Positions 4,417-27,083 of a stretch of 64,000 bases of DNA are shown here, piece by piece. The translations under genes were made by a program, and so were the position numbers. Source of the stretch: a phage; the sequence record PZ019086.1. The stretch is one strand, 5' to 3'. How positions within the stretch are numbered: the first letter of the stretch is position 1; every line of letters starts with the position of its first letter. Under the pieces are notes generated by a model. The model did not search any database. It worked only from the letters and a program-made list of their open reading frames with translations, and was not told the DNA's origin.

Positions 4417-5617
4417 ATTTTGTAATAATGTCAAACTGTTCTTTAAAGCAGAAGCTTGAATCTTGATGCTGATACAAAAATTCATAAGCTTTTTCGCGTT
4501 CACGGTCATAAAGAGCTCGGTCAGATGACAGTTCTTTAATACGCTCAAATGTTGATTCCATGTCATTTTCATCAAACCAAACGATACCGCTATCGTGTGA
4601 AATTAACGGAGTATTATCAACACGGAATTTTAAATTTTCGCCAGTAGATTTCCAAAATACCGGAATTGTTCCACATGCACCAAGCTCGAGATGAGTGTAT
4701 TCTAAAGAACGCTGTAGATATTTTTTGTCCAACTTACTCAGCTGATAACCAAATCCGGATTTACTCATGCGTTCAAGCATTTCGCTATTTACATAACGGT
4801 CGAGAATTTGCGTTGGCAAATTAGGAGCAATTTTAATTTGGTCTACTTGATGAAGACGATAATACTCGTATGGAATTCCTTTTTCTTTAATAGGAATGAA
4901 CGCTGGAGAACGTTCCAGACCTTCCATAATAGTACTTAGTCCTGCAGGTTTAAGATGTTTTTCGTGAAAATCAAACATCTGATAAAAACCTTTCCATGTA
5001 GTCGTACGACCAATCCAACGGTTGATATTCATGTTAATTTCAGAAACATCTTTCCAGTAGGTTGATCGAACCTTCGCAATATCCATAGGAGGCTGAAAGT
5101 TATATACGGTCGGTGCTTCTTCAATATCATCAAACAGAGAAACAGTTTCCGGATACCATTCTTTCATCAAAACTTTATTAAAGTCACCATTATCAGAATG
5201 GCTAAAAATAACATCAGCTCGACGAACAGTTTCTTCTAATCCCAAATTTCGACGCAAAGAAAGAGAAGAATGGTCATGCTGATAAACTACAACACGAACC
5301 GAAGGTTTAATGTTATCAATAATTTTTTTATAGTTATTAATTGTGTCTTCTTCGACTGAAGTAGCAGGAACTGAATTGATAACTAGAATATCACAATCAT
5401 TTACCAGCTTAAGCGTTTTATCGTATTCTTTTGCCAATAAAACCGGAATTGAAAATGATTTATAATCATGCGCGCAATTACGAGTAAATGATTTATCTTT
5501 AGCATAAACCAAAGTTACTTCATGACCATTTTTAATAAACCAATCACGCTGCTCAAGAGAAAATTTAGTTACACCGCAACCTTCAAGACCTCGAGCCATA
5601 AAAATACATACTTTCAT
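4415..5617 (-). CDS. a-gt: DNA alpha-glucosyltransferase
   Basis: 400 aa; N-terminus MKVCIFMARGLEGCGVTKFSLEQRDWF matches my recollection of T4 a-gt; size and position downstream of 55 match. Confidence 0.85.
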   Translation of the reverse strand: MKVCIFMARGLEGCGVTKFSLEQRDWFIKNGHEVTLVYAKDKSFTRNCAHDYKSFSIPVLLAKEYDKTLKLVNDCDILVINSVPATSVEEDTINNYKKIIDNIKPSVRVVVYQHDHSSLSLRRNLGLEETVRRADVIFSHSDNGDFNKVLMKEWYPETVSLFDDIEEAPTVYNFQPPMDIAKVRSTYWKDVSEINMNINRWIGRTTTWKGFYQMFDFHEKHLKPAGLSTIMEGLERSPAFIPIKEKGIPYEYYRLHQVDQIKIAPNLPTQILDRYVNSEMLERMSKSGFGYQLSKLDKKYLQRSLEYTHLELGACGTIPVFWKSTGENLKFRVDNTPLISHDSGIVWFDENDMESTFERIKELSSDRALYDREREKAYEFLYQHQDSSFCFKEQFDIITK

Positions 5618-11980: not shown

Positions 11981-12450
11981 TTTAAACTCTTTCTAAGCTG
12001 CTTCTTAAATGAAGCTATTAATTGTGTTTTAGTGTCAGATTCATTATATTCAAATCCTCTTTGAAGCATCTCAGCCATCATTTCCTCTTTTCCTAAACGA
12101 GAAAATTCCTTTGATTTATCTCCAACGAAGTTAGGGTGAATATTATTTTGGGTGTAATCGGATTTTAAATAAGTAAGTAAATTTTCTAACCATTCAAGAT
12201 AATCAACACCTTGTCCCTTTAAGCCAGAACGATTAAATTTATGCTTCATTTGACCTTCTGCAGCATTACAGAGATTACATAGCAACCCACGTACCTTTCC
12301 TGCTTTTGGTCCATTTAATTCATGGTCATGGTCAAGGTGATTAGCTTGAACATCAGGATTTAGTTCTCGTTGGCAAATTAAGCATTTACCGTTTTGTGCA
12401 TCATAAAATTTCTGTTTTTCTTCTTTGTATAATTTGCCAGTCAATAACAT
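11977..12450 (-). CDS. 49: Endonuclease VII (Holliday junction resolvase)
   Basis: 157 aa; N-terminus MLLTGKLYKEEKQKFYDAQNGKCLICQREL and H-N-H/Zn motifs match my recollection of T4 gp49. Confidence 0.9.
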   Translation of the reverse strand: MLLTGKLYKEEKQKFYDAQNGKCLICQRELNPDVQANHLDHDHELNGPKAGKVRGLLCNLCNAAEGQMKHKFNRSGLKGQGVDYLEWLENLLTYLKSDYTQNNIHPNFVGDKSKEFSRLGKEEMMAEMLQRGFEYNESDTKTQLIASFKKQLRKSLK

Positions 12451-12499
12451 AATAAAACCCTTACCTTGAATAGATAAGGGTATTTATTATTTTCAAGTA

Positions 12500-12964
12500 T
12501 TAAAACGCTCGGTCAGAAAAAGAAATTTGAGTTTCAAGCCATTCAATATATTCTGCCGCAGCTTGCATCAAATTTCCTTCATAACCATCGTTATTTTCTT
12601 GTGCAGCTAATTTAGCTAATGCATATGAAATACGTTCACCTTGAAAAGCGGCTTTAGGTTTATGAATAGCTTGATCAATTCGTTCTACGACTTCTTCAAT
12701 TTCGCCATTTTCTGCGGATTCAGTATTCCACAAGCACCAATACGTAATTGGCTTATCATAGATGTTAATAATCTTTCCATCAGAAAGTTCAATTTCAATA
12801 ATTCCAGTATCAGGTTCTATATCATCTTCGCATTCTTTTGCAAGTTCACGAACTTTAAAGACAGTACCTGCACTAAGTTCCGGCCAGTAATTACACAGCC
12901 CTTTATCAGCACGATTAATTCTAAACCACTTATCTACTGCAATCATATCCCATCTCCATATCAA
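12500..12964 (-). CDS. Hypothetical protein (map position corresponds to T4 pin; identity not verified)
   Basis: 154-aa ORF immediately upstream of gene 49. Confidence 0.35.
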   Translation of the reverse strand: MIWRWDMIAVDKWFRINRADKGLCNYWPELSAGTVFKVRELAKECEDDIEPDTGIIEIELSDGKIINIYDKPITYWCLWNTESAENGEIEEVVERIDQAIHKPKAAFQGERISYALAKLAAQENNDGYEGNLMQAAAEYIEWLETQISFSDRAF

Positions 12965-14309: not shown

Positions 14310-14598
14310 ATCGGTGTTTGCAATGACGACATTTATAGCGAAGATTACTAGTCTGCCAATGGACTAATTGAACCTGTTCAGTACCGCATTCAGGACAATT
14401 AGGAACGTTTTTAGAAGCCCTTTCGCGACGTTCAACCATAGCCATAATGGCATCCCAAGCTGGAGGTATAAAGTCTAAATCATCGCAACCATGAATCTTT
14501 CCACGCATTTCCAGATCGTCTTCTTCACCAGCCATAATAATTTTAATTAGACTGGAATTACTTGAAGCTGCAATATCTTCTAATAAACGCTTTTTCAT
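14281..14598 (-). CDS. Zinc-ribbon protein
   Basis: 105 aa; CPECG...CRHCKH four-Cys motif. Confidence 0.5.
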
Positions 14599-15524
14599 TT
14601 CAATACCTCAATAGCATTACGTAAACCATTTGCTTTTGCATTAAGAGCTTTTAACAATTTGGTGTGTTCGGCAATCTGGGCTTCAACTTCAACTAGTCGA
14701 GATTTGAGGTATTCACGTTCTTCACTCATGTTATCAATCTTTTCTACTTTAGGCTCTTTTACAACTGTCTTATATGTATTAGGATTCTTCAGTTTAATTA
14801 GAATACGTGAACTGTATAACATTGAACCATTATCTTCGATTTCGTCATACATTTCTACTACGTCCATGATTTTTAACATCATGCGGAGTTTATAAGACAA
14901 CGAACGAATAGTTTTGTTGTGCTTATTAATTTCTCTAGATGTCATGGTGCCGAGATTACGTGAGTAATAATAAGGAACTTGGATATTAATTAACACTGAT
15001 GAACCACCTGGCTTGTGTGTTACTTCATCAGCAATAACCCAATCCTTAACATGAACTGTATTTGTACGGTCATCGCCTGCGGTAAATAGTTTACGAGCAT
15101 GCTTAAAAAGCATATTCACTTGGTCATTAAATTGACAGGCAAATTTATCAGCAAATTTAGTTTCAGGAATGGTAGATAGCCAATCAGCCAAATGGGTCTT
15201 TTTAACATCGTTAACAATAGTAAATTCAACCAAATCGGTTATAGATGTTGCAGATTTAATGAAGCTTGGCTTCATAAAGTTTTTAATGTTATCACGAGCT
15301 ACAGTAGAAGATAACATACGAGAACGTTTAAACCATTCAAGCAAATTGCCTAATGAATGAGAATAGGCGTTCTGAGTATCTTTACAGATATGATTTTCCT
15401 GGCCAATATATTGAAGGAAATCACGAAGAATATTATTGATTACTGCTCTGTGTCCGATCTGATAATTACGGTGTTTAGCAATAAGACTGTCAAAATAATC
15501 AATATAATGTTTACGAGTTTTCAT
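14595..15524 (-). CDS. Hypothetical protein, member 1 of a tandem paralog array; C-terminal coiled coil
   Basis: 309 aa; N-terminus MKTRKHYIDYF resembles the two following ORFs. Confidence 0.6.
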   Translation of the reverse strand: MKTRKHYIDYFDSLIAKHRNYQIGHRAVINNILRDFLQYIGQENHICKDTQNAYSHSLGNLLEWFKRSRMLSSTVARDNIKNFMKPSFIKSATSITDLVEFTIVNDVKKTHLADWLSTIPETKFADKFACQFNDQVNMLFKHARKLFTAGDDRTNTVHVKDWVIADEVTHKPGGSSVLINIQVPYYYSRNLGTMTSREINKHNKTIRSLSYKLRMMLKIMDVVEMYDEIEDNGSMLYSSRILIKLKNPNTYKTVVKEPKVEKIDNMSEEREYLKSRLVEVEAQIAEHTKLLKALNAKANGLRNAIEVLK

Positions 15525-15576
15525 GTTCTTCTCACTTGGTTAATGATTTATACTCCGAGCCATCCTTGGCTTTAAA

Positions 15577-16599
15577 TTACTTAATTAACTGTAAAGCTTG
15601 TTCAAGACGATCCAGGCGATTAACAGATTCTTCCCAAATCCTTTTAGCTTGCTCATATTCTTTCTGCGCTTTATTAGAAATTTCTAGAGCTTCTTTATAA
15701 GCTTTTTCTAATGCAATAACTTCTGGACGAATTTCTACCGGTTCAGGTGAATCGTCAAGACATTCCATTAGTTCCTCAAGGGTAGTTTCTTCTTTAGGAG
15801 TATTCACAATTTCTTCACATTTTTGTTGGTAAATTTCTTTATCAGTCGGTGAGTACGCACACTTTACTTCACGAAGACTAACTACAATTTTATATCCTTC
15901 CCAACCGCATATATTCTTAAAAGGATACGTATGAATATTTTCTACTGTTTCCATACAAAGTAGTGCAGTCTCTAATTGACGAGTTATAGTGCTAGCAATT
16001 GAGAAAAATTTATTAATATTCCTTTGGTTAGTTTCTGGTGTAAAAAATCCATAATTCACAAAAATAGATACTTTATTTTTATCAAGTTCATATTCTTTTA
16101 TGATAATCATATCAGAAGCCAAAGGATGAATTTGACGATAATCGCCATAACATAATTTAGAAGCTGATTTTAGAATCTGTCCTTTGAAAAGCCTGAAATT
16201 ACTAATCCAACGACGAGTAAAAATATTCTCAGGGTCTTCTTTATTATTAAGATGATAAGAATTAACATCACCGAACCAATTATATCCTACTACATCTTTG
16301 GTTCGTTTAATTTCTTTCCCAAAATTACCAAGAATATCTCGATTAACCAAATATGAAAGAAGACGAGACTCTTTAAAGGTTTTCTTGATAACATCTTTAT
16401 CTACACGGCTAGAAATTTTACGAATTTCATGAATAAATTTAACAGAAGAAACAATACTTGCATCAACACTATTGAGCCATTGATTGATAATAGAAATAAC
16501 GCTATTTTGGCCAAACATCGGTATAGCTTTATCATCAATAACGCTATTGAATGATTTGATATATTCGTTACGAGTCATATTAATCTCCTCAGATACCAC
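15577..16599 (-). CDS. Hypothetical protein, member 2 of the tandem paralog array
   Basis: 340 aa; N-terminus ...MTRNEYIKSF; C-terminal coiled coil. Confidence 0.6.
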   Translation of the reverse strand: MVSEEINMTRNEYIKSFNSVIDDKAIPMFGQNSVISIINQWLNSVDASIVSSVKFIHEIRKISSRVDKDVIKKTFKESRLLSYLVNRDILGNFGKEIKRTKDVVGYNWFGDVNSYHLNNKEDPENIFTRRWISNFRLFKGQILKSASKLCYGDYRQIHPLASDMIIIKEYELDKNKVSIFVNYGFFTPETNQRNINKFFSIASTITRQLETALLCMETVENIHTYPFKNICGWEGYKIVVSLREVKCAYSPTDKEIYQQKCEEIVNTPKEETTLEELMECLDDSPEPVEIRPEVIALEKAYKEALEISNKAQKEYEQAKRIWEESVNRLDRLEQALQLIK

Positions 16600-16618
16600 A
16601 TCCTTGTGGCAAAGTAAA

Positions 16619-17641
16619 CTAGTTCAGTGCATTTAGTGCATTGTTCAGTTTAGAACGTTGCTTTGTCAGATTTTGAACCCTTGACTGAGCTTGTTCTAAC
16701 ACCTTTTCAGCTTCTAGCACTTCATTGGTCGCTTTAACTAATTCAGCATCTACTGCTTTAAGAGACTTCTCAATCGCGTCAGCGTGCCATTTTTCTACAG
16801 GTTTAAAATTTGAATTTTCAGTAGGAAGAAAACTCACTTTATTAAGTTTACATGCATCTATATTGCTTGAGCTATACATCCAAAATTTAGGATCGTTTGA
16901 TAAGTAATTGGATAAATTTAAGTTATCTTGCACTTCCTGCTTTTTCTCTTGCGGGACTTCGTCCTTTCTCAAAAAATCGTATTTAAATGAAACGATCATA
17001 TCAAGTTCATACGTTGTTGTGTCTAATTTAAATCGTTCAAAACGAGGTAAAATCTTAGATTGAACAGCAGCAACAACATCCATATACTTAAATGCTTCTG
17101 TCAACTGTGATTTAAGGCATTCACAAATTGAAAGAGAATTTTTTGTATTAGGTTTAAAGCTAATTCGTGCAGTTCTGTTATTTTCTTTTAATGGTCTTAC
17201 TTCCATCTGAAGAGTATAACCATCAAATTTCAGGTTCTTTAAGTTAATATCAGAACCTTTCAATCGACTCGCAGTTGATAAAATTTGCTTTAATTGTCTA
17301 CGGAACAGAGCAATAAATCTCCATTCAATACGATAATGATTTGGATTGAAAAATCCAGATGATAAATCGACCTTACTTTGACCAACGCCTTGAACAAATA
17401 GAGGATTTTTATAATCAATAGTTTTACAGAAATCTGTGAGCTGCTCACGAGCCGTCATTTGTGTAATATACCCCGCTTTACTAAAATTACTCACCCATTC
17501 ACTGCTATTTAGATATTTAAAGTGATGAATAGCACGATTAACTTTATCAGGGTCTAAATTATTTTCACACAAAAATGTCATAACATCACGAGTATCGCTG
17601 GCATTACGAACCATATCTTCAATTTGAGAACGAGTTTTCAT
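16619..17641 (-). CDS. Hypothetical protein, member 3 of the tandem paralog array
   Basis: 340 aa; N-terminus MKTRSQIEDM; C-terminal coiled coil. Confidence 0.6.
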   Translation of the reverse strand: MKTRSQIEDMVRNASDTRDVMTFLCENNLDPDKVNRAIHHFKYLNSSEWVSNFSKAGYITQMTAREQLTDFCKTIDYKNPLFVQGVGQSKVDLSSGFFNPNHYRIEWRFIALFRRQLKQILSTASRLKGSDINLKNLKFDGYTLQMEVRPLKENNRTARISFKPNTKNSLSICECLKSQLTEAFKYMDVVAAVQSKILPRFERFKLDTTTYELDMIVSFKYDFLRKDEVPQEKKQEVQDNLNLSNYLSNDPKFWMYSSSNIDACKLNKVSFLPTENSNFKPVEKWHADAIEKSLKAVDAELVKATNEVLEAEKVLEQAQSRVQNLTKQRSKLNNALNALN

Positions 17642-17649
17642 GGTGTTCC

Positions 17650-18555
17650 TTAAGATTTAAGTAAATCAACAATTTTAATTAACTTTTCACGCTCAGATTT
17701 AGCTTTACTACTCAATCCAGATAGTCTGAAAATTTCATCGTCATACTGTTGAATAGAAATATTCAGCTCTTCAATCTGCTTATTAAAATAATCAATTTGT
17801 TCAGAATGTTTTTCGTTACTGCGAACTGGTACAGGTTTTGTAGGCAATGTAGTTGAACTGGATTCATTCGGGCGATAAATCAAAATGCAATTTGAACCAA
17901 TCGGGCATTTAGCACCAGACGTATATTCTAATGTTCCAGCTTCTTTTAAAACTTCAAAAGCTAAACAGAGATGATGCCCCATATTAACATAATCTGTAGA
18001 GTGAGCTCTGATGTAATAATCATCTCCACGAATACTAAATTTAAAGCATTTAAGGTCTTCTGTATTATTGGTCTTAAAAATCATTTGTTTATCTAGACCT
18101 TTAGCTAATCGAGCGCCTAATGCTAATAATCGTCGTTGATTTTTCCACAAATCCGCAATCATTTGATCGAATGATAATTTTGGCATTAGTCGACCATAAA
18201 GGTCATATCCTTTATTATAATTACGAAGGATTTCACTCGCGTTAATACGAGACAATGCTCCAATTTTATTAAGGGCTTTCATAATGCGATTAGATAAACT
18301 CATTCCAGATCCGTTTGTTCGCTGTAAATGTTTTTCTAATCCAAATCCAATATCAACTTTAAACTTATCTAAAATTTCAGCATGAACATCTCTGTCGATA
18401 ACATTCAAATCCAAAGTTGGGTTAAATCTATGAAAAAATTTATCTGGCTCTCCACGACGAAATACAGTCCATTCATTCATCATTTTTTTATTAACTAATG
18501 ATTTAATTACTGCATTGACATTATTAATTACTACTGACATATTTTCCTCACTCAA
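17650..18555 (-). CDS. Hypothetical protein, member 4 of the tandem paralog array (more divergent)
   Basis: 301 aa; C-terminal coiled coil. Confidence 0.55.
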   Translation of the reverse strand: MSEENMSVVINNVNAVIKSLVNKKMMNEWTVFRRGEPDKFFHRFNPTLDLNVIDRDVHAEILDKFKVDIGFGLEKHLQRTNGSGMSLSNRIMKALNKIGALSRINASEILRNYNKGYDLYGRLMPKLSFDQMIADLWKNQRRLLALGARLAKGLDKQMIFKTNNTEDLKCFKFSIRGDDYYIRAHSTDYVNMGHHLCLAFEVLKEAGTLEYTSGAKCPIGSNCILIYRPNESSSTTLPTKPVPVRSNEKHSEQIDYFNKQIEELNISIQQYDDEIFRLSGLSSKAKSEREKLIKIVDLLKS

Positions 18556-20965: not shown

Positions 20966-20994
20966 TTTATTCTCCAATTTCACATTTGTTTTGA

Positions 20995-21045
20995 TAGGGT
21001 AATAGTATCACACTACTACCCTACTGTAAACAATTTATTTTAATG
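20995..21045 (-). promoter_or_regulatory. T4-type early promoter
   Basis: ttgatagggtaatagtatcac...tgtaaac motif. Confidence 0.45.
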
Positions 21046-21298
21046 TTCGCCAAATTTTTACTGCTTCGCGACGAGATACTTCTACAGCTCCAAGTTCTAC
21101 GGCTTTTTGGCGGCGGCGCGCGTGTAAGTCATAATGTTTAATGCGTTTATCTTGAAACCAAGAGCGTTTCATTCCTATTGCTTCTGCCATTTCATGAAGC
21201 TCTTCAATATCTCCATCAGTGAACATATGACAATTTTTAGTTGGATGACCGCGAAGTTTCCATCCATGATTCATTAAAACATCTACGTAAACTGTCAT
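21035..21298 (-). CDS. Hypothetical basic protein
   Basis: 87-aa ORF; its ATG overlaps the stop of the upstream small ORF (ATGA). Confidence 0.5.
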   Translation of the reverse strand: MTVYVDVLMNHGWKLRGHPTKNCHMFTDGDIEELHEMAEAIGMKRSWFQDKRIKHYDLHARRRQKAVELGAVEVSRREAVKIWRTLK

Positions 21299-21444
21299 TG
21301 ATTCTGCTCCAAATATGTTTCTATAATTTTCTGAGCGAGATAAACTGCGTTATCTTCAGTTGCATCTTCTAAGAAATTTTCAAAACAAGCTGAAATCTCT
21401 TCTGTGTCAATCAACTTTTTTACTTCAATTAACGTAGTTTTCAT
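21297..21444 (-). CDS. Small acidic ORF (48 aa, below the ORF-track cutoff)
   Basis: Hand translation MKTTLIEVKKLIDTEEISACFENFLEDATEDNAVYLAQKIIETYLEQNQ; coupled to the next gene; lies downstream of a promoter motif. Confidence 0.4.
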
Positions 21445-21464
21445 TTTATTCCCCAAATCCACAT

Positions 21465-21535
21465 CAGTTGATAGTTGTATAGTACCATAAAGCTTTATGC
21501 TTGTAAACCGTTTTGTGAAAAAATTTTGAAATAAA
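21465..21535 (-). promoter_or_regulatory. T4-type early promoter
   Basis: cagttgatagttgtatagtaccat...tgtaaaccgttttgtgaaaaa. Confidence 0.5.
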
Positions 21536-21538
21536 AAA

Positions 21539-21556
21539 GGGAGCCCGAAGGCTCCC
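21539..21556 (-). terminator. Stem-loop with CGAA tetraloop
   Basis: gggagcccgaaggctccc palindrome after the stop of ORF 21559-22569. Confidence 0.4.
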
Positions 21557-21558
21557 TA

Positions 21559-22569
21559 TCATTTATAATAACTTCGATGGTTTTCAAGATAGACCTTCTC
21601 AAGGAAGTCATCCCAGAAACTCATGTCTACTTTTTGCTGCATACCGTTCTTAGAAGCTTCAGTAGATGCTGCTTCTACTTGATCGACCACATCTTCCAAA
21701 AACTCTTGAACAATTTTAAATGGATGTTTACCCAACTTCACGTCGAGAATAAATGGAGCGTCTTGAAGTGGATAGACTAAGTCACCAGTTTTGTAAATTT
21801 CCAATAGTTGAAGTCCACCACGACAAGCATGGCTCAGAGCTTTCCAGTCAATACCTTCGTTGGCTTCGGCCTTACGGGCACGTTCACCATATTCAGCATC
21901 TAATTTGTTCAGTGACTGCTTAAGCTCAATAAGAGAAAGCGTTGTCTGATATTTACGACCCAACACAGTGTAAAACGTTTGTGGACCTGTTTTCTCATGA
22001 TTATGGAACACCCATTCACAGAATTCGTTTTCTGGAAGACGATGCTTAATATCTTCAACTTTAGTACGACGCTGCTTAATGGAACCGTCTTCTTGGTAAT
22101 CAACCCATTGCTCAGGGATTTGATTAACTACTTTCAATACATCGCGTAATGCAGCCAAACGAGAACCCTTGACACCGTATTTAGAAGCTTGCTTGCGGAC
22201 ATATCCTAAATAGGATTTCATGTTAGTCGTATAAAAACGAGAACGATTGTCTTGAATAAACTTCCATACATCAGGCAAATCAGATTTAACCACTAGCTCG
22301 GGTGGAGTGTGGAGCATATCCAATGCTACAGTTTCACCATCTGCTGCTAATTTAAAGAAATACTTAAGACTGTATAGTTCATGGTCAATATCATCTTTAG
22401 TGTTTTTAGATGATGTGTTGTTAGTGTTTTTACTCATATGCTCTTTAACATTTCCGATAAGAATATCGCGAGCAGGAGGAACAAAGATTTCTTTAAAATC
22501 TACATCAGATTCTGGAGTAGAAGTTCCATAAAGATGACTACCAAAATAAGACTTAACTACAGTTTTCAT
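21559..22569 (-). CDS. Putative nucleotidyltransferase-fold protein (minimal Pol-beta-like NTase motif at the N-terminus)
   Basis: 336 aa; N-terminal FGSHLYGTSTPESDVDF fits the GS-x(9-13)-DxD nucleotidyltransferase signature. Confidence 0.35.
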   Translation of the reverse strand: MKTVVKSYFGSHLYGTSTPESDVDFKEIFVPPARDILIGNVKEHMSKNTNNTSSKNTKDDIDHELYSLKYFFKLAADGETVALDMLHTPPELVVKSDLPDVWKFIQDNRSRFYTTNMKSYLGYVRKQASKYGVKGSRLAALRDVLKVVNQIPEQWVDYQEDGSIKQRRTKVEDIKHRLPENEFCEWVFHNHEKTGPQTFYTVLGRKYQTTLSLIELKQSLNKLDAEYGERARKAEANEGIDWKALSHACRGGLQLLEIYKTGDLVYPLQDAPFILDVKLGKHPFKIVQEFLEDVVDQVEAASTEASKNGMQQKVDMSFWDDFLEKVYLENHRSYYK

Positions 22570-23030
22570 TATTTATCCTTATATTCAATAACAGGACATA
22601 CTTTAGCTTTACTCGCTTTTAAAAATTCGACGATAATAGATTTCTTGGGTTGAATAGGAGGTAAACCTTTATACGCCCTATCAATATTTTCTACATGTAA
22701 AGCATAATCCTTTTTCCATTTATAATCTTTATATTTTTCACGCAGTTGTACAGGAATAACAAATGAACCAATAATAAGTAAAACAAGCAAAATGACAAGT
22801 ACAAATGCTGATGGAATAAGAGTCCATAAACTACCAAAAATAAGCCATTTCTGTATGATTTCTGCACAGATGATAGTTAGACCTGCGAGTACAGTACATC
22901 CGAAAAAAGAAACGAAAAATGTAGGGATAACAATAGACCAAAAGTATGCACATAGTGTCTTAGGTCGTTTCCATTCATCATTAAACATTTTGAATAATTT
23001 ATAATGCCAAGAGTTTTCATTAATAATCAT
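22569..23030 (-). CDS. Membrane protein
   Basis: 153 aa; two long hydrophobic segments. Confidence 0.55.
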   Translation of the reverse strand: MIINENSWHYKLFKMFNDEWKRPKTLCAYFWSIVIPTFFVSFFGCTVLAGLTIICAEIIQKWLIFGSLWTLIPSAFVLVILLVLLIIGSFVIPVQLREKYKDYKWKKDYALHVENIDRAYKGLPPIQPKKSIIVEFLKASKAKVCPVIEYKDK

Positions 23031-23032
23031 AA

Positions 23033-23554
23033 TTATCCTTTCATTGAAGGTGTAACAGTTGTTAAATACTTAATCATAGCTTCAGCTTCTGATTTTGATA
23101 ATGAAATTTCTCCATTGTTTTGACGAATAGAAATAAAATCCGGATGACGGTCACCACCAGCTTTTAAAACACACATGTAAGTATCAACTTCGCCTTCAAT
23201 ATTTGAAATGATTGAAGCAGTTCCACATGAATGTGGTTGTTGATAAACTAATACAGCTTTTCTTCCACCGTTTGACTGTTCATAAACTTTTAACACATCA
23301 AACAAATCACTTCTTTTATCAATAGCTAAGATGTTGTTTTCATCTTCAATGTTAAATCCTTCGGATATTTCATAAAGTGTCACCCATAAATCGCCAATAT
23401 CAATGACAGCATTCACCTTTCCATGATTTTCAAGAGCATTACAAATTTTCTTAATTTCATCATAACTCATTTTAATAATATCATCTCCTTGAATAAAGAA
23501 GATGTCATTTTTAAATTCAACGCGAATTAAACCACTTTCACTTGAAATAAACAT
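23033..23554 (-). CDS. Hypothetical protein (paralog of the next ORF)
   Basis: 173 aa; shares GFNIE and C-terminal YLTTVTPSMKG with the neighbour's YLDSVIPTMISK. Confidence 0.55.
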   Translation of the reverse strand: MFISSESGLIRVEFKNDIFFIQGDDIIKMSYDEIKKICNALENHGKVNAVIDIGDLWVTLYEISEGFNIEDENNILAIDKRSDLFDVLKVYEQSNGGRKAVLVYQQPHSCGTASIISNIEGEVDTYMCVLKAGGDRHPDFISIRQNNGEISLSKSEAEAMIKYLTTVTPSMKG

Positions 23555-23560
23555 ATTTCC

Positions 23561-24112
23561 TCACTTTGAAATCATAGTTGGAATGACAGAATCAAGATAA
23601 GTCTTTAATAAAACAGCTTCTTCTTTGTTTAATACAACAACATTAACATCATTTACCGATTGACGAATAGTTAAGACATCTCCCTCTTCATAGCATTTTG
23701 ATACATTTAAAACAGTTTCATAATTTTGATTACAAGCGTTAGTAATAATAGCATTGCAATTTTTAAACCATTTTAAACCATGTTTTCTTTCATTAGAATA
23801 ATAGAAATATTTAATCTTAGCTATAAAATTATCCCAATTATTAATTGATAAGCATATTGACTCGCTTTCAATATTAAATCCTGGGCATAAAGAATAAAAA
23901 TGAATTTTATGCTCATCATTAATGCTTACAATTTTATCAGTGTATGGTTTTTCAATTTGGGTTAAATGAATAATTTCGCTAGGCGTAAAATATAGCATAT
24001 CGTCTTCTTGCGTCAAACGATACATATTATTTACTTTTTCTATAGCCAATTCACCAAAAAGTGAACTAACTTCTAGTACTAATCGTTTCATATTAATCCT
24101 TTTTATTGGCAT
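23561..24112 (-). CDS. Hypothetical protein (paralog of the previous ORF)
   Basis: 183 aa; shared motifs as above. Confidence 0.55.
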   Translation of the reverse strand: MPIKRINMKRLVLEVSSLFGELAIEKVNNMYRLTQEDDMLYFTPSEIIHLTQIEKPYTDKIVSINDEHKIHFYSLCPGFNIESESICLSINNWDNFIAKIKYFYYSNERKHGLKWFKNCNAIITNACNQNYETVLNVSKCYEEGDVLTIRQSVNDVNVVVLNKEEAVLLKTYLDSVIPTMISK

Positions 24113-24371
24113 GAATTTGTTCTAAAATTTTAGAGTATTCCTTTGTATCAGATTTACGTACAATCGATACACTATAAGGCATACTATCGGTGTCTTTTAT
24201 AAAGCGTTCCAAATGACACTCTAACAAAATTTCTGGGTTATAAATCGTGTACATCAAATTACCTGTTGCTCCACGATATTGACAGATTTCTACTGATTGA
24301 GCATCATTCCACAATTTTGTTAAGACTAAATCGCCTACTTCTAATTTAGGAAAGCTCATGTTATTCACCAA
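24093..24371 (-). CDS. Hypothetical protein
   Basis: 92-aa ORF. Confidence 0.45.
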   Translation of the reverse strand: MVNNMSFPKLEVGDLVLTKLWNDAQSVEICQYRGATGNLMYTIYNPEILLECHLERFIKDTDSMPYSVSIVRKSDTKEYSKILEQIHANKKD

Positions 24372-24546
24372 TTAAAGTTTCAATATAAGAATCAAGATTT
24401 ACTTTAGCTTCTTCCATAAGAGTTTTGTATTTAATCTTATTAGCATGTCCGGAGAAAGCTGATTCATCAATAACTGTTGATGCATGAACAGCTTTACTAT
24501 ACATCTCAATTAATTCTCTTAATTTAAAAGCCTGCTCACTTGTCAT
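24361..24546 (-). CDS. Hypothetical small protein
   Basis: 61-aa ORF. Confidence 0.45.
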   Translation of the reverse strand: MTSEQAFKLRELIEMYSKAVHASTVIDESAFSGHANKIKYKTLMEEAKVNLDSYIETLIGE

Positions 24547-24674
24547 TACATGCTCCTTTGAATAATATCAATAATGTTGTTCACCAGATTATAAGTAAAC
24601 ATTGGGTAATTATATTGAATCATCACATACACAACAAACAAAACTTTCATTCTCTTCTCCTTGGCAGTTGGCAA

Positions 24675-24725
24675 GATTACTATATCATAACCTTGCCAAC
24701 TTGTAAACCATTAAATGACGTTTTC
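24675..24725 (-). promoter_or_regulatory. Early promoter with a 13-bp inverted repeat in its spacer / -10 region
   Basis: ggcagttggcaag ... cttgccaacttg flanking attactatatcataac, followed by tgtaaac (plus-strand view). Confidence 0.35.
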
Positions 24726-24873
24726 AATAAAATTCTGGAGTTTTGTGTGAGCATCAACCATGATTTTCATTTCTTCCTTTGCAAAAGCTATGCCTCTTTC
24801 CCTAGAAGAACACTCATAGTCAGAAACTGCATTAGCATATTCTTCAATTAGCTTCATTAAAAACATCTGCTTT

Positions 24874-25068
24874 TCAGTTTTCATTATTCCACCTAATCAT
24901 TTCAAGATATTGAACTAACTTAGCTTTAGATTTATCCAAATCTCTTTTAGCTGCTTCTATACCATCGTATGAGTATCCTTCACAATGCTCAACTGCTAAT
25001 TGGTATGAATCTATTTCAACATCACGTGCTAATTTAATGATTTTTTCAAACTGTTCACGCGTTAGCAT
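24874..25068 (-). CDS. Hypothetical small protein
   Basis: 64-aa ORF. Confidence 0.45.
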   Translation of the reverse strand: MLTREQFEKIIKLARDVEIDSYQLAVEHCEGYSYDGIEAAKRDLDKSKAKLVQYLEMIRWNNEN

Positions 25069-25070
25069 AC

Positions 25071-25310
25071 TTAAACTCTCGTATTATGATCGATAATTTC
25101 ATCAAGAAACATATCTAAAGCTTCTACAGCATTATCAACTTTAGCTTCAAGTTCTTCAGCATCTTTATTTGCAATGCCTGACGAAAACCAAGCAAAGTCA
25201 CTAAGTTCCTCATCTGCTTTGCGAATTAAAGCTACCAATTCTTTAATTTTATCTGCTTGTTCAATGCTAATCATTATTCCACCACATATGAAAGAGAGAA
25301 TATTGCACAC
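25071..25310 (-). CDS. Hypothetical small acidic protein
   Basis: 79-aa ORF. Confidence 0.45.
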
Positions 25311-25462
25311 GCCATGTGAGTTGCAGCTTCATCACACATATCATAACGTTTCTTAAGAAGTTCTACAAGTTCTTCACTAGTAACGTCATCCACGTTGACG
25401 AAAAAATCACCATTAATGATGACGTAGATATTTCCTTCTTGATTGAGTGCTTCAATTTTCAT
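25274..25462 (-). CDS. Hypothetical small protein
   Basis: Start set at the internal Met (MKIEALNQ...) preceded by GAGGAGAA; the longer listed ORF would start inside the promoter. Confidence 0.4.
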
Positions 25463-25484
25463 GATGTTCTCCTCTTTATCCGAT

Positions 25485-25530
25485 GGTTGTATAGTATCAC
25501 AGCTCAAATGGAAAGTAAACCGGTAAAATG
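25485..25530 (-). promoter_or_regulatory. T4-type early promoter
   Basis: gttgtatagtatcac...agtaaac motif. Confidence 0.45.
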
Positions 25531-25534
25531 AAAA

Positions 25535-25552
25535 AAGTCTCCCGAAGGAGAC
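25535..25552 (-). terminator. Stem-loop with CGAA tetraloop
   Basis: agtctcccgaaggagact. Confidence 0.4.
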
Positions 25553-25557
25553 TAATG

Positions 25558-25944
25558 TTATTCGAGGGAAAGAAGATATTTGCTCTGGTAAAACATCCCA
25601 GTAATATCATCTATCGTGCTTTGAATGGCCGGAGGCATTTCTTTATAAATGCTGTTAGATTGGTCTAGTATGCGATCAATCATTTTAATTGTGTCGGTAG
25701 GAAGTTTACTGGCATCTGGAATAGAAGGCGTGTATTTTCTACCAGAATACCCCAAATATTGCTCACCAAATTTATCAATCAAATCTGGCAACTCAGAGAA
25801 AATAAAATCGTATGCTTTGTGTCTAGCATAACTTTTAGTTTCAAAATGCGCAGAATGAAAATAAGCTTGTGCAGCCATTAATAAACCTAAGTATTCATCT
25901 GCCTTTGAAGGTTTTCCACTTTGTGAAAAGTCGCTGAATTTCAT
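25558..25944 (-). CDS. Hypothetical protein
   Basis: 128-aa ORF, coupled to rI. Confidence 0.5.
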
Positions 25945-26234
25945 TCAGTCTCCAATTTAATGTTCATAATTCTAGCGTATGATTGTGCCATCTCCGCGCC
26001 TCGCTCTATACATTCAAAATCGGAAGAACACGGGTCATTTTTATAAGTCGTTCGCATAAAACTATAGAACTGTTCAGATGATTCTACGCTTTTATTTTCA
26101 AAAAGCGTATAAACATGTCTAATACCAGATTCCATAAATTTATCAAAATGAGGATCGACATTCGCTTCAATCGGCGGAGATAAAACAAACGCTAATCCTA
26201 GCATGGCGAATAATGCCGCTGCTTTTAAGGCCAT
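25941..26234 (-). CDS. rI: Lysis-inhibition regulator rI (antiholin) with N-terminal signal-anchor
   Basis: 97 aa; MALKAAALFAMLGLAFVLSPPIEANVDPHFDKFMESG... closely matches my recollection of T4 rI; lies next to tk. Confidence 0.8.
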   Translation of the reverse strand: MALKAAALFAMLGLAFVLSPPIEANVDPHFDKFMESGIRHVYTLFENKSVESSEQFYSFMRTTYKNDPCSSDFECIERGAEMAQSYARIMNIKLETE

Positions 26235-26246
26235 AAAGGCCTCCTA

Positions 26247-26459
26247 TCATTTTTGTCCTGTATTTACTTTATGCCGATGCACGGCCTTAACTTTATCAAG
26301 GTATTTTTCAAAATTTCGCAATCTAGTATAGTCTGCCGGAGATTGGTTGAGTGATACTTCTCGACGCAAAGCTGAAATGATATTTCCAACTTCCCTACGA
26401 ATTTCATCTAATTGAAGAACAGTAAGATTGCGAAGTTGCTTTTCAGTTAATTGTAGCAT
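26247..26459 (-). CDS. Hypothetical small protein
   Basis: 70-aa ORF. Confidence 0.45.
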
Positions 26460-26501
26460 ATATACCCCTTTAGTTAGATAAACCTATTTATAACTTTTGC
26501 A

Positions 26502-27083
26502 CTAACCGAGCTTTTTAGTTAATTCATTCCAATGTTTTCTACACAAAGAAACATAAATTTCATCACCAATACAGATTTGATTACCTTCTTTAACTGGTGT
26601 TCCATCTTCCATTAATCGAGCTGTCATAATAGCTTTTTTACCACAATGACAAACTGCTTTTAGTTCAATAAGTTTATCTGCAATCGCCAAAAGTTCTTTA
26701 GAACCTTCAAATAATTTTCCAGCGAAATCAGTCCTTAGCCCATAAGCCATAACAGGAACATTATATGTATCAACAATTCGGCTTAATTGATGCACCTGTT
26801 CAGTTTTTAAAAACTGGGCTTCATCTACAAATACACAATGAATATCTTTTTGTGCTTCAGCCCATTTATAGAACTCAAAAATATCCATATCATCCGTAAT
26901 AATATTCGCTTCCTGCTTAATTCCAATGCGAGAAACGACTTCACAGACAGAATCACGAGTATCAATAGCAGGCTTAAGAACTAATACGCCCATTCCGCGT
27001 TCTTTATAATTATGTGCAGCAGTCAAAAGAGAAGCAGATTTTCCAGCATTCATTGCTGCATAAGTAAAAATTAAACTCGCCAT
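26502..27083 (-). CDS. tk: Thymidine kinase
   Basis: 193 aa; P-loop AAMNAGKS; C-terminal Zn-binding cysteines; typical TK fold motifs. Confidence 0.9.
   Translation of the reverse strand: MASLIFTYAAMNAGKSASLLTAAHNYKERGMGVLVLKPAIDTRDSVCEVVSRIGIKQEANIITDDMDIFEFYKWAEAQKDIHCVFVDEAQFLKTEQVHQLSRIVDTYNVPVMAYGLRTDFAGKLFEGSKELLAIADKLIELKAVCHCGKKAIMTARLMEDGTPVKEGNQICIGDEIYVSLCRKHWNELTKKLG

Follow-up and report, generated by a model that had tools for sequence, protein, structure and literature searches.

In this study, we asked what two neighbouring genes are, and what they might do, that lie on the minus strand of a T4-like phage genome, in an accessory stretch of early genes bounded by rI and the gene of the NrdC.11 nucleotidyltransferase. 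A sequence-only reading of the same DNA had described them as an adjacent pair of paralogous unknown proteins that had arisen by local duplication and divergence. The window referred to below is the whole stretch that was analysed, 64,000 nucleotides of the record PZ019086.1, numbered from its first letter. It belongs to a T4-like (Tequatrovirus) genome; its segment 22500-24600 is 97.5-97.6% identical to the Escherichia phages ZCEC14 and vB_EcoM_P8, and 504 phage records were matched by this region. The two genes, here called A and B, and their parts are the following.

23033..23554, minus strand: gene A, diverged mobD.1 paralog, 173 aa (Pfam, BLASTP, shuffles)
23561..24091, minus strand: gene B, ortholog of T4 mobD.1 (Y05I), 176 aa (identity, position, Pfam, start site)
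23559..23563, minus strand: stop codon TGA of B (23561-23563), overlapping the GAGG ribosome-binding site of A (read from the sequence)
23792..24082, minus strand: N-terminal domain of B, residues 4-100, repeats R1 and R2 (PF24449 match; secondary structure of the model)
23573..23776, minus strand: C-terminal domain of B, residues 106-173, repeat R3, tail YLDSVIPTM (PF24448 match; model)
23270..23551, minus strand: N-terminal domain of A, residues 2-95 (PF24449 match; pLDDT of the model about 85 in this domain)
23042..23251, minus strand: C-terminal domain of A, residues 102-171, tail YLTTVTPSM (PF24448 match)
23867..23881, minus strand: GFNIE in B, residues 71-75 of the 176-aa version, in a strand of R2 (alignments; model strand 72-75)
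23345..23359, minus strand: GFNIE in A, residues 66-70 (alignments; model strand 67-70)

Identity and paralogy taken together, A and B are almost certainly tandem paralogs of the T4 MobD.1 (Y05I) family. A formal pairwise alignment with BLASTP spanned 174 columns, nearly the whole of both proteins, with 24% identical and 47% positive positions and significant similarity (E 9e-9), and their Smith-Waterman score was 114 compared with 31.7 +/- 5.4 (maximum 71) for 1000 shuffles (z = 15). Two Pfam models recognise both A and B with scores far above gathering, namely T4_y05I_N (PF24449, cut-off 24.9 bits; A 113.6 bits, E 7e-33; B 136.9 bits, E 4e-40) and T4_y05I_C (PF24448, cut-off 27 bits; A 78.5 bits, E 5e-22; B 64.1 bits, E 2e-17), and both match PHROG 1502 over its full length (A E 2e-64, B E 5e-75). 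The two features on which the sequence-only reading had been based, a shared GFNIE and related C-termini (YLTTVTPSMKG in A and YLDSVIPTMISK in B), are present as described and fall in alignment columns that are invariant across the family. It might be argued that the similarity arose by chance or through AT-rich composition between unrelated ORFs, given that the identity is so low and that a composition-corrected tblastn within the window gave no cross-match between A and B; however, this explanation is refuted by the BLASTP, shuffle, Pfam and PHROG results and is hardly credible when a natural in-register chimera of B and A also exists. The pair therefore stands as one of neighbouring, true paralogs produced by local duplication and divergence. 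No third copy was found in the window by tblastn or by four domain HMMs run against its 542 six-frame ORFs, and the HMMs detected no single-repeat relative among these ORFs either.

The extent of B needs one revision. The coordinates of the pair and the 173 aa of A given previously are correct, and both ORFs lie on the minus strand; the 183 aa given for B, in contrast, imply a start at ATG 24112, a codon that falls within the upstream gene and is preceded by no ribosome-binding site. At ATG 24091 an AAGGA and the TAA stop of the Tudor-domain gene come immediately before the start, and for this reason B is most likely a protein of 176 aa (23561-24091) rather than 183 aa. The Pfam N-domain match in B begins at residue 4 of this shorter version. 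The 6-nt gap between the two genes suggests that A and B may be translationally coupled.

On the minus strand, the order of genes is tk, rI.1, rI, rI.-1, several small genes, the Tudor-domain gene, B, A, a membrane-protein gene, nrdC.11 and a hairpin, with the landmarks listed here.

26502-27083, minus strand: tk
25941-26234, minus strand: rI
24679..24707, minus strand: early-type sigma-70 promoter-like site upstream of the A/B unit (TTTACA, 17 nt, TG-TATAGT)
24093-24371, minus strand: Tudor-domain gene, directly upstream of B
22569..23030, minus strand: downstream membrane-protein gene, 153 aa (PHROG 944; without counterpart in T4)
21559..22569, minus strand: nrdC.11, RlaP-type nucleotidyltransferase, last gene of the unit (Pfam RlaP and PHROG 388)
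21538..21557, minus strand: terminator-like hairpin at the end of the unit (GC-rich 8-bp stem, then a run of T)

A and B share one early unit, which runs from the early promoter-like site through a small DUF7438 gene, the Tudor-domain gene, B, A, the membrane-protein gene and nrdC.11 to the terminator. The promoter-like site is a prediction from a consensus scan, with 10 of 12 consensus matches and an extended -10 element, and a terminator has been annotated in phage G50 at the position equivalent to the hairpin. In scans around the pair, no MotA-box middle promoter or late promoter was detected within 21000-26400, the sole late-like site being at 26492. The nrdC.11 gene of the window is 96.5% identical to that of T4 at the nucleotide level. 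For the membrane-protein gene, a 37% identical ortholog was found in the equivalent position in a distant T4-like contig, and its place beside a MobD.1-family gene is kept in the phages APCEc01 and VR7.

Comparison with T4 gives B its identity. B is 81% identical in amino acids and 88.9% in nucleotides to T4 MobD.1 (181 aa; UniProt P39240, Y05I_BPT4), it lies in the equivalent position with common flanking genes, and it is by these measures the T4 MobD.1 ortholog; the Pfam families T4_y05I_N and T4_y05I_C are named after Y05I. The two proteins have both domains in common, although the B allele carries a rare C-domain variant. A has the same two-domain architecture and length as T4 MobD.1, but it is a paralog at low identity (23-28% to MobD.1 proteins) rather than an ortholog and has no counterpart in T4. 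The earlier label of unknown proteins no longer fully fits the pair, as the family has been catalogued and B has a T4 ortholog.

When the window was aligned with T4, positions 22574-23535, which hold the membrane-protein gene and A, were found to be replaced in T4 by the 780-bp mobD HNH homing-endonuclease gene; a review of T4 mobile elements describes mobD as inserted between nrdC.11 and mobD.1 (PMC2988022). Distribution among T-even phages had been proposed as a check on the pair, and the result is that the pair is common in Tequatrovirus. A is present at more than 90% identity (90-96%) in about 430 phage records of this genus, whereas mobD was found in only 47 phage records, all of them at least 99% identical to T4, and the two-copy state is therefore the norm of T4's genus and T4 the exception, having lost A. 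In Mosigvirus APCEc01, Gaprivervirus VR7 and one metagenomic T4-like contig, a single MobD.1 is followed by the membrane-protein gene and nrdC.11. Because these related genera carry a single MobD.1 in a conserved order, the ancestral arrangement had one copy and the second is specific to Tequatrovirus. The duplication does not, however, seem to be recent. Against each of the MobD.1 lineages A shows 23-31% identity, compared with 31-44% between the MobD.1 proteins of different genera, which indicates that either the duplication is old or A has changed faster. T4 and the single-copy genera also show that B can do without A. Nor do the clustered genes form an obligate module, since MobD.1 is retained in T4 although neither the Tudor gene nor the membrane-protein gene is present there.

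The family as a whole is very small and, where the source is named or located, confined to T4-like phages. A profile search of 1.84 billion representative proteins gave 18 clusters at E <0.001 and a word-indexed search of 5.8 billion proteins gave 45 proteins, and all members with a source name or a located contig came from T4-like phages. Other T4-like phages contain stand-alone C-terminal domains of 74-83 aa, one of which could be placed in a 175-kb T4-like genome, directly after the Tudor gene. Two genes of 162 aa and 173 aa that follow the stand-alone C-domain in contig L005 were tested as hidden relatives and proved not to be related. In full-length and stand-alone forms alike the tail YLxxVIPTM is nearly invariant. 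The MobD.1 alleles fall into classes of 80-100%, about 44% and about 32% identity, and the N-domain has diverged more than the C-domain: A and the family member P0047 are 41% identical in the N-domain versus 78% in the C-domain, MobD.1 classes 1 and 2 are about 40% versus 53-69% identical, and the C-terminal 45 residues of class-2 alleles are almost identical to those of T4. Natural rearrangements also occur. P0048, found on six contigs, is the in-register chimera mentioned above, with the N-terminal part of B and the C-terminal part of A, and in P0080 the first 50 residues of MobD.1 are fused to the C-terminal part of NrdC.11. The A/B locus is thus plastic. A 52% match in T2 was considered as a divergent A allele and rejected, as its translation shows the T2 record leaving and regaining frame in both genes; the vB_EcoM_P8 record has a broken reading frame, as in T2.

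Structure prediction, also named beforehand as a way of examining the pair, gave a three-repeat model of B. This AlphaFold2 model, based on 24 sequences, has a pLDDT of 89 and a pTM of 0.67, and in each of its repeats (R1 3-45, R2 53-99, R3 105-169) four to five strands are followed by a helix, with five strands in R3. The model of A, from a six-sequence alignment, is good only in the N-domain, where the layout is as in B (overall pLDDT 67). In the models, R1 and R2 would make up the N-terminal domain and R3 the C-terminal domain; R3 is folded confidently on its own in the B monomer model. Two of the repeats, R1 and R3, are related in sequence and matched with an hhalign probability of 89% (E 2e-6). 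DUF7189 (PF23819) matched R1 (E 4e-6) and R3 (E 4e-4), which argues that the MobD.1 locus of T4-like phages holds single- and three-repeat proteins probably built from one unit. Proteins with DUF7189 are about 70 aa long and are encoded directly upstream of MobD.1 in Gaprivervirus-type (VR7-type) phages, and A gives a sub-threshold Pfam match to them; they differ, however, in having a single repeat and no YLxxVIPTM tail, and none is encoded in the window. A sequence-profile search of the PDB gave no match even at E 10, and PADLOC and NCBIfam scans gave no matches. The PDB structures retrieved by Foldseek with the B model (the Pob3 middle domain, hydroquinone dioxygenase and sliding clamps) were rejected at TM-scores <0.4 and RMSD of 8-24 angstroms, and a toxin-antitoxin or defence-system reading was dropped as no match or architecture supports it.

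One structural likeness deserves closer consideration. The strand-strand-strand-strand-helix topology of PC4-like domains is found in the B model and in the N-domain of the A model. When the A model was searched against the PDB, human PURA repeats I-II ranked first and the Whirly-like proteins SsgA/SsgB came next (probabilities of 0.92-0.97), at TM-scores of 0.29-0.41 and Foldseek E values of 0.04-0.06. With the better B model, in contrast, no PUR, Whirly or PC4 structure appeared among the top 50 PDB matches. At the level of profiles, R3, that is the C-domain, matched the PUR repeats in register (GDVLTIRQ versus GRFLRIRQ) with an hhalign E of 0.002 and a probability of 14%, a score that none of 300 column shuffles attained; no significant match to the PUR repeats was obtained with R1, R2, the whole N-domain or DUF7189, so that one of five profile comparisons produced a signal. 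PurA, Whirly and PC4 families were matched neither in Pfam nor in the PDB sequence-profile search. Pur-alpha and the bacterial PUR-domain proteins (PDB 8cht, 3k44, 5fgo, 3n8b) have four-strand-plus-helix repeats like the MobD.1 family, Pur-alpha has the same 2+1 layout of two N-terminal repeats and a lone third, and single-repeat relatives occur on both sides, on the PUR side for instance in Borrelia. According to a 2020 review of PC4-like domains, one such repeat by itself would probably not fold, and Pur-alpha, which forms dimers by way of its third repeat, is the only protein known with an intramolecular as well as an intermolecular PC4-like domain (PMC7549692). The MobD.1 family differs from the PUR-domain proteins in that it is acidic, lacks basic binding surfaces, has a five-stranded R3 in the model and shows no significant Pfam or PDB sequence match to them. 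SsgA/SsgB, actinomycete cell-division proteins (PDB 3cm1, 6slc), were the second and fourth matches of the A model (probability 0.92-0.96), but their TM-scores are in the low range given above, they have no sequence similarity and they were not retrieved by the B model. In SsgA/SsgB, a fold of this type serves protein recruitment and not nucleic-acid binding. With support that is weak and mixed, we regard the PUR-likeness of the repeat as a lead and not as membership.

With regard to expression, T4 mobD.1 has been reported as an early RNA and an early protein, the protein having been detected by mass spectrometry (PMC9697503 supplement). Its knock-down by CRISPRi-ART was scored as 'Not Fit', that is without effect on fitness (PMC11879866 supplement), and a viable genome-reduced T4 has lost the nrdC.11-mobD.3 block (PMC9825161). 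A comparison of the window with phage G50 gave dN/dS values of 0.20 (A), 0.31 (B) and, for reference, 0.19 (membrane-protein gene) and 0.07 (nrdC.11). Both copies are thus kept by purifying selection in nature, although laboratory hosts do not require MobD.1 of the phage.

Several alternatives have to be weighed against the view that both genes have a function of their own and against the function that we propose for them. A could be a redundant, decaying duplicate, with only B being of importance, and one might point in this respect to the lack of A in T4 and its close relatives, to the broken frames in the T2 and vB_EcoM_P8 records and to the natural deletions or fusions that have removed A (P0048, P0080). 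We consider this very improbable. The reading frame of A is intact and preceded by a GAGG ribosome-binding site of its own, and A is conserved in the many records mentioned above and has a lower dN/dS than B. In the T2 record, moreover, B is broken too, and the return of both genes to frame would sooner be explained by errors in the record or by a loss in that lineage. More serious, although still unlikely in our estimate, is the proposal that A and B bind single-stranded DNA or RNA in the manner of PUR/Whirly-type proteins and serve as early regulators, perhaps together with the Tudor-domain protein and NrdC.11 on an RNA or DNA substrate. Pfam itself names both domains 'y05I-like putative transcription factor', and the strand-helix topology of the repeats, the PURA match of the A model and the weak in-register match of the C-domain to PUR repeats would all fit; the linkage to the RlaP-family nucleotidyltransferase gene is conserved, and PC4- or Whirly-like binders are known from phages, such as the T5 PC4 homolog and a jumbo-phage protein (PMC11077065). 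This is opposed by the composition of the proteins, as full-length members are all acidic, with net charges of -4 to -20, and the pI is 4.2-5.6 in 23 of 24 members. A basic and aromatic nucleic-acid-binding surface is not seen at the level of composition, and family-wide conservation falls on Q, E, D, Y, L and M instead of on basic and aromatic residues. Acidity is, however, common among T4 early proteins and for this reason disfavours nucleic-acid binding only weakly. The failure of the high-confidence B model to retrieve PUR, Whirly or PC4 structures, the lack of a Pfam or PDB sequence match to these families and the presence of MobD.1 in T4 without the Tudor and membrane genes also speak against a nucleic-acid binder. 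Pfam scans of A and B detected no recognised DNA-binding domain or RNA-polymerase-binding motif, and no functional study of MobD.1 or Y05I was found in the literature.

Our own proposal is that A and B are accessory early proteins working as dimeric adaptors, a reading that we put forward tentatively. The single conserved C-terminal repeat with its YLxxVIPTM tail would pair with another such repeat to form homodimers and possibly A-B heterodimers, or else the C-domain might serve for docking onto a common partner. The monomer model of B, in which R3 folds confidently by itself, and the lack of any need of B for A in T4 and the single-copy genera count against this proposal. The fast-evolving, cassette-like N-domain would then recognise a variable target, an idea that comes from the divergence patterns of the N- and C-domains alone. 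This target could be a host or a phage protein, possibly a component of host defence, and is favoured over naked DNA because every member of the family is acidic. If identity and mechanism are blended, with the weight on the mechanism, this adaptor proposal is the best overall explanation that we can offer, and we would place it somewhat short of an even chance. More speculative, and in our view rather doubtful, is an extension in which the MobD.1 family would have branched off from the PUR/PC4-like fold as an acidic form peculiar to phages, with the 2+1 layout of Pur-alpha, and in which A, B, the stand-alone C-domains and the DUF7189 proteins mix through their single repeats to give homo- and heterodimers whose N-terminal recognition domains differ and are rapidly exchanged.

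The results also bear on how these genes are named. RefSeq homologs carry the name 'molybdopterin-guanine dinucleotide biosynthesis protein MobD', and no similarity to molybdenum-cofactor biosynthesis proteins was found in Pfam or NCBIfam. It seems that the T4 symbol mobD.1, given to the gene beside the mobD homing endonuclease, was wrongly expanded into this name, and the widespread molybdopterin name for MobD.1 proteins in RefSeq is thus an annotation error. The A/B pair itself is real and is an ordinary part of Tequatrovirus genomes, catalogued before this study: the genes, the family (PF24448, PF24449, PHROG 1502) and its common membership were already public, and identical sequences exist in sequenced phages. 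It is the T4 reference that is atypical here, a homing endonuclease having displaced one paralog together with the membrane-protein gene, and consequently studies based on T4 miss gene A, which is carried by most of the genus. Testable hypotheses for an expressed early T4 protein follow from how the repeats are arranged, from the conserved tail of the C-domain and from the cassette-like variation of the N-domain. If the doubtful extension were true, mixing dimers of the MobD.1 family would provide the phage with a combinatorial set of early adaptors for host takeover or counter-defence.

Immediately upstream of the A/B pair lies a second local gene-family expansion, which consists of four adjoining small genes of 57–79 aa on the minus strand (24361-25310), all four of which match Pfam DUF7438:

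24361-24546, minus strand, DUF7438 gene (Pfam match E 5e-15)
24711-24884, minus strand, DUF7438 gene (E 7e-14)
24874-25068, minus strand, DUF7438 gene (E 3e-17)
25071-25310, minus strand, DUF7438 gene (E 3e-15)

The T4 counterpart of this cluster is the mobD.2a–mobD.5 region. The nrdC.3–nrdC.6 region of the window (14595-18555, minus strand) holds four large ORFs of 309, 340, 340 and 301 aa, whose C-terminal tails are alike and coiled-coil-like. The 309-aa protein and the first 340-aa protein share 27.5% identity over 160 aa (BLASTP, E 1.5e-7) and, judged by their sequences, these two are shown to be paralogs; BLASTP detected no similarity between the remaining pairs among the four. Two gene pairs have no counterpart in T4, where the genes that flank each of them in the window are joined directly:

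20978-21435, DUF4031 gene (87 aa) and a 55-aa gene
24090-24534, Tudor-domain gene and a 61-aa gene

The MobD.1 allele of the window carries a rare variant in the C-domain of ORF B (23573-23680), which reads SVNDVNVVVLNKEEAVLL, the common form at this place being IDDFRxHIVTFTKDEAIAL. Only 6/727 records are at least 99% identical to this allele, which suggests that the variant is a small recombination patch.

Rearranged or broken members of the family were also seen elsewhere. A 179-aa protein from six metagenomic contigs (P0048) is an in-register chimera of a MobD.1 N-terminal part and an A-type C-terminal part, and in a second metagenomic protein of 210 aa (P0080) MobD.1 residues 1–50 are fused to the C-terminal part of NrdC.11, with all of the sequence between these two segments deleted. 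In the T2 reference record (NC_054931, 2452-3519), both MobD.1-family genes, which are annotated as fragments, lose the reading frame and then regain it; they are either pseudogenes or reflect indel errors of this record. The A gene of vB_EcoM_P8 is likewise split.

Many records name MobD.1 and MobD.4 homologs 'molybdopterin-guanine dinucleotide biosynthesis protein MobD' (for example, 5062-5595 and 12353-12535 in the RefSeq records L001 and L003, respectively). Neither Pfam nor NCBIfam lends support to this name; it seems to have arisen when the T4 gene symbol mobD.x was wrongly spelled out.

Outside the MobD.1 family, the nearest structural neighbours in BFVD are several paralogous proteins of 120–136 aa from large Bacillus phages, including Gp230 and Gp212 of Bacillus phage W.Ph. 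and proteins of Bacillus phage BPS13/BPS10C (TM-score 0.4–0.5, probability 1.0). A distant relationship between these Bacillus phage proteins and the N-domain fold is possible.
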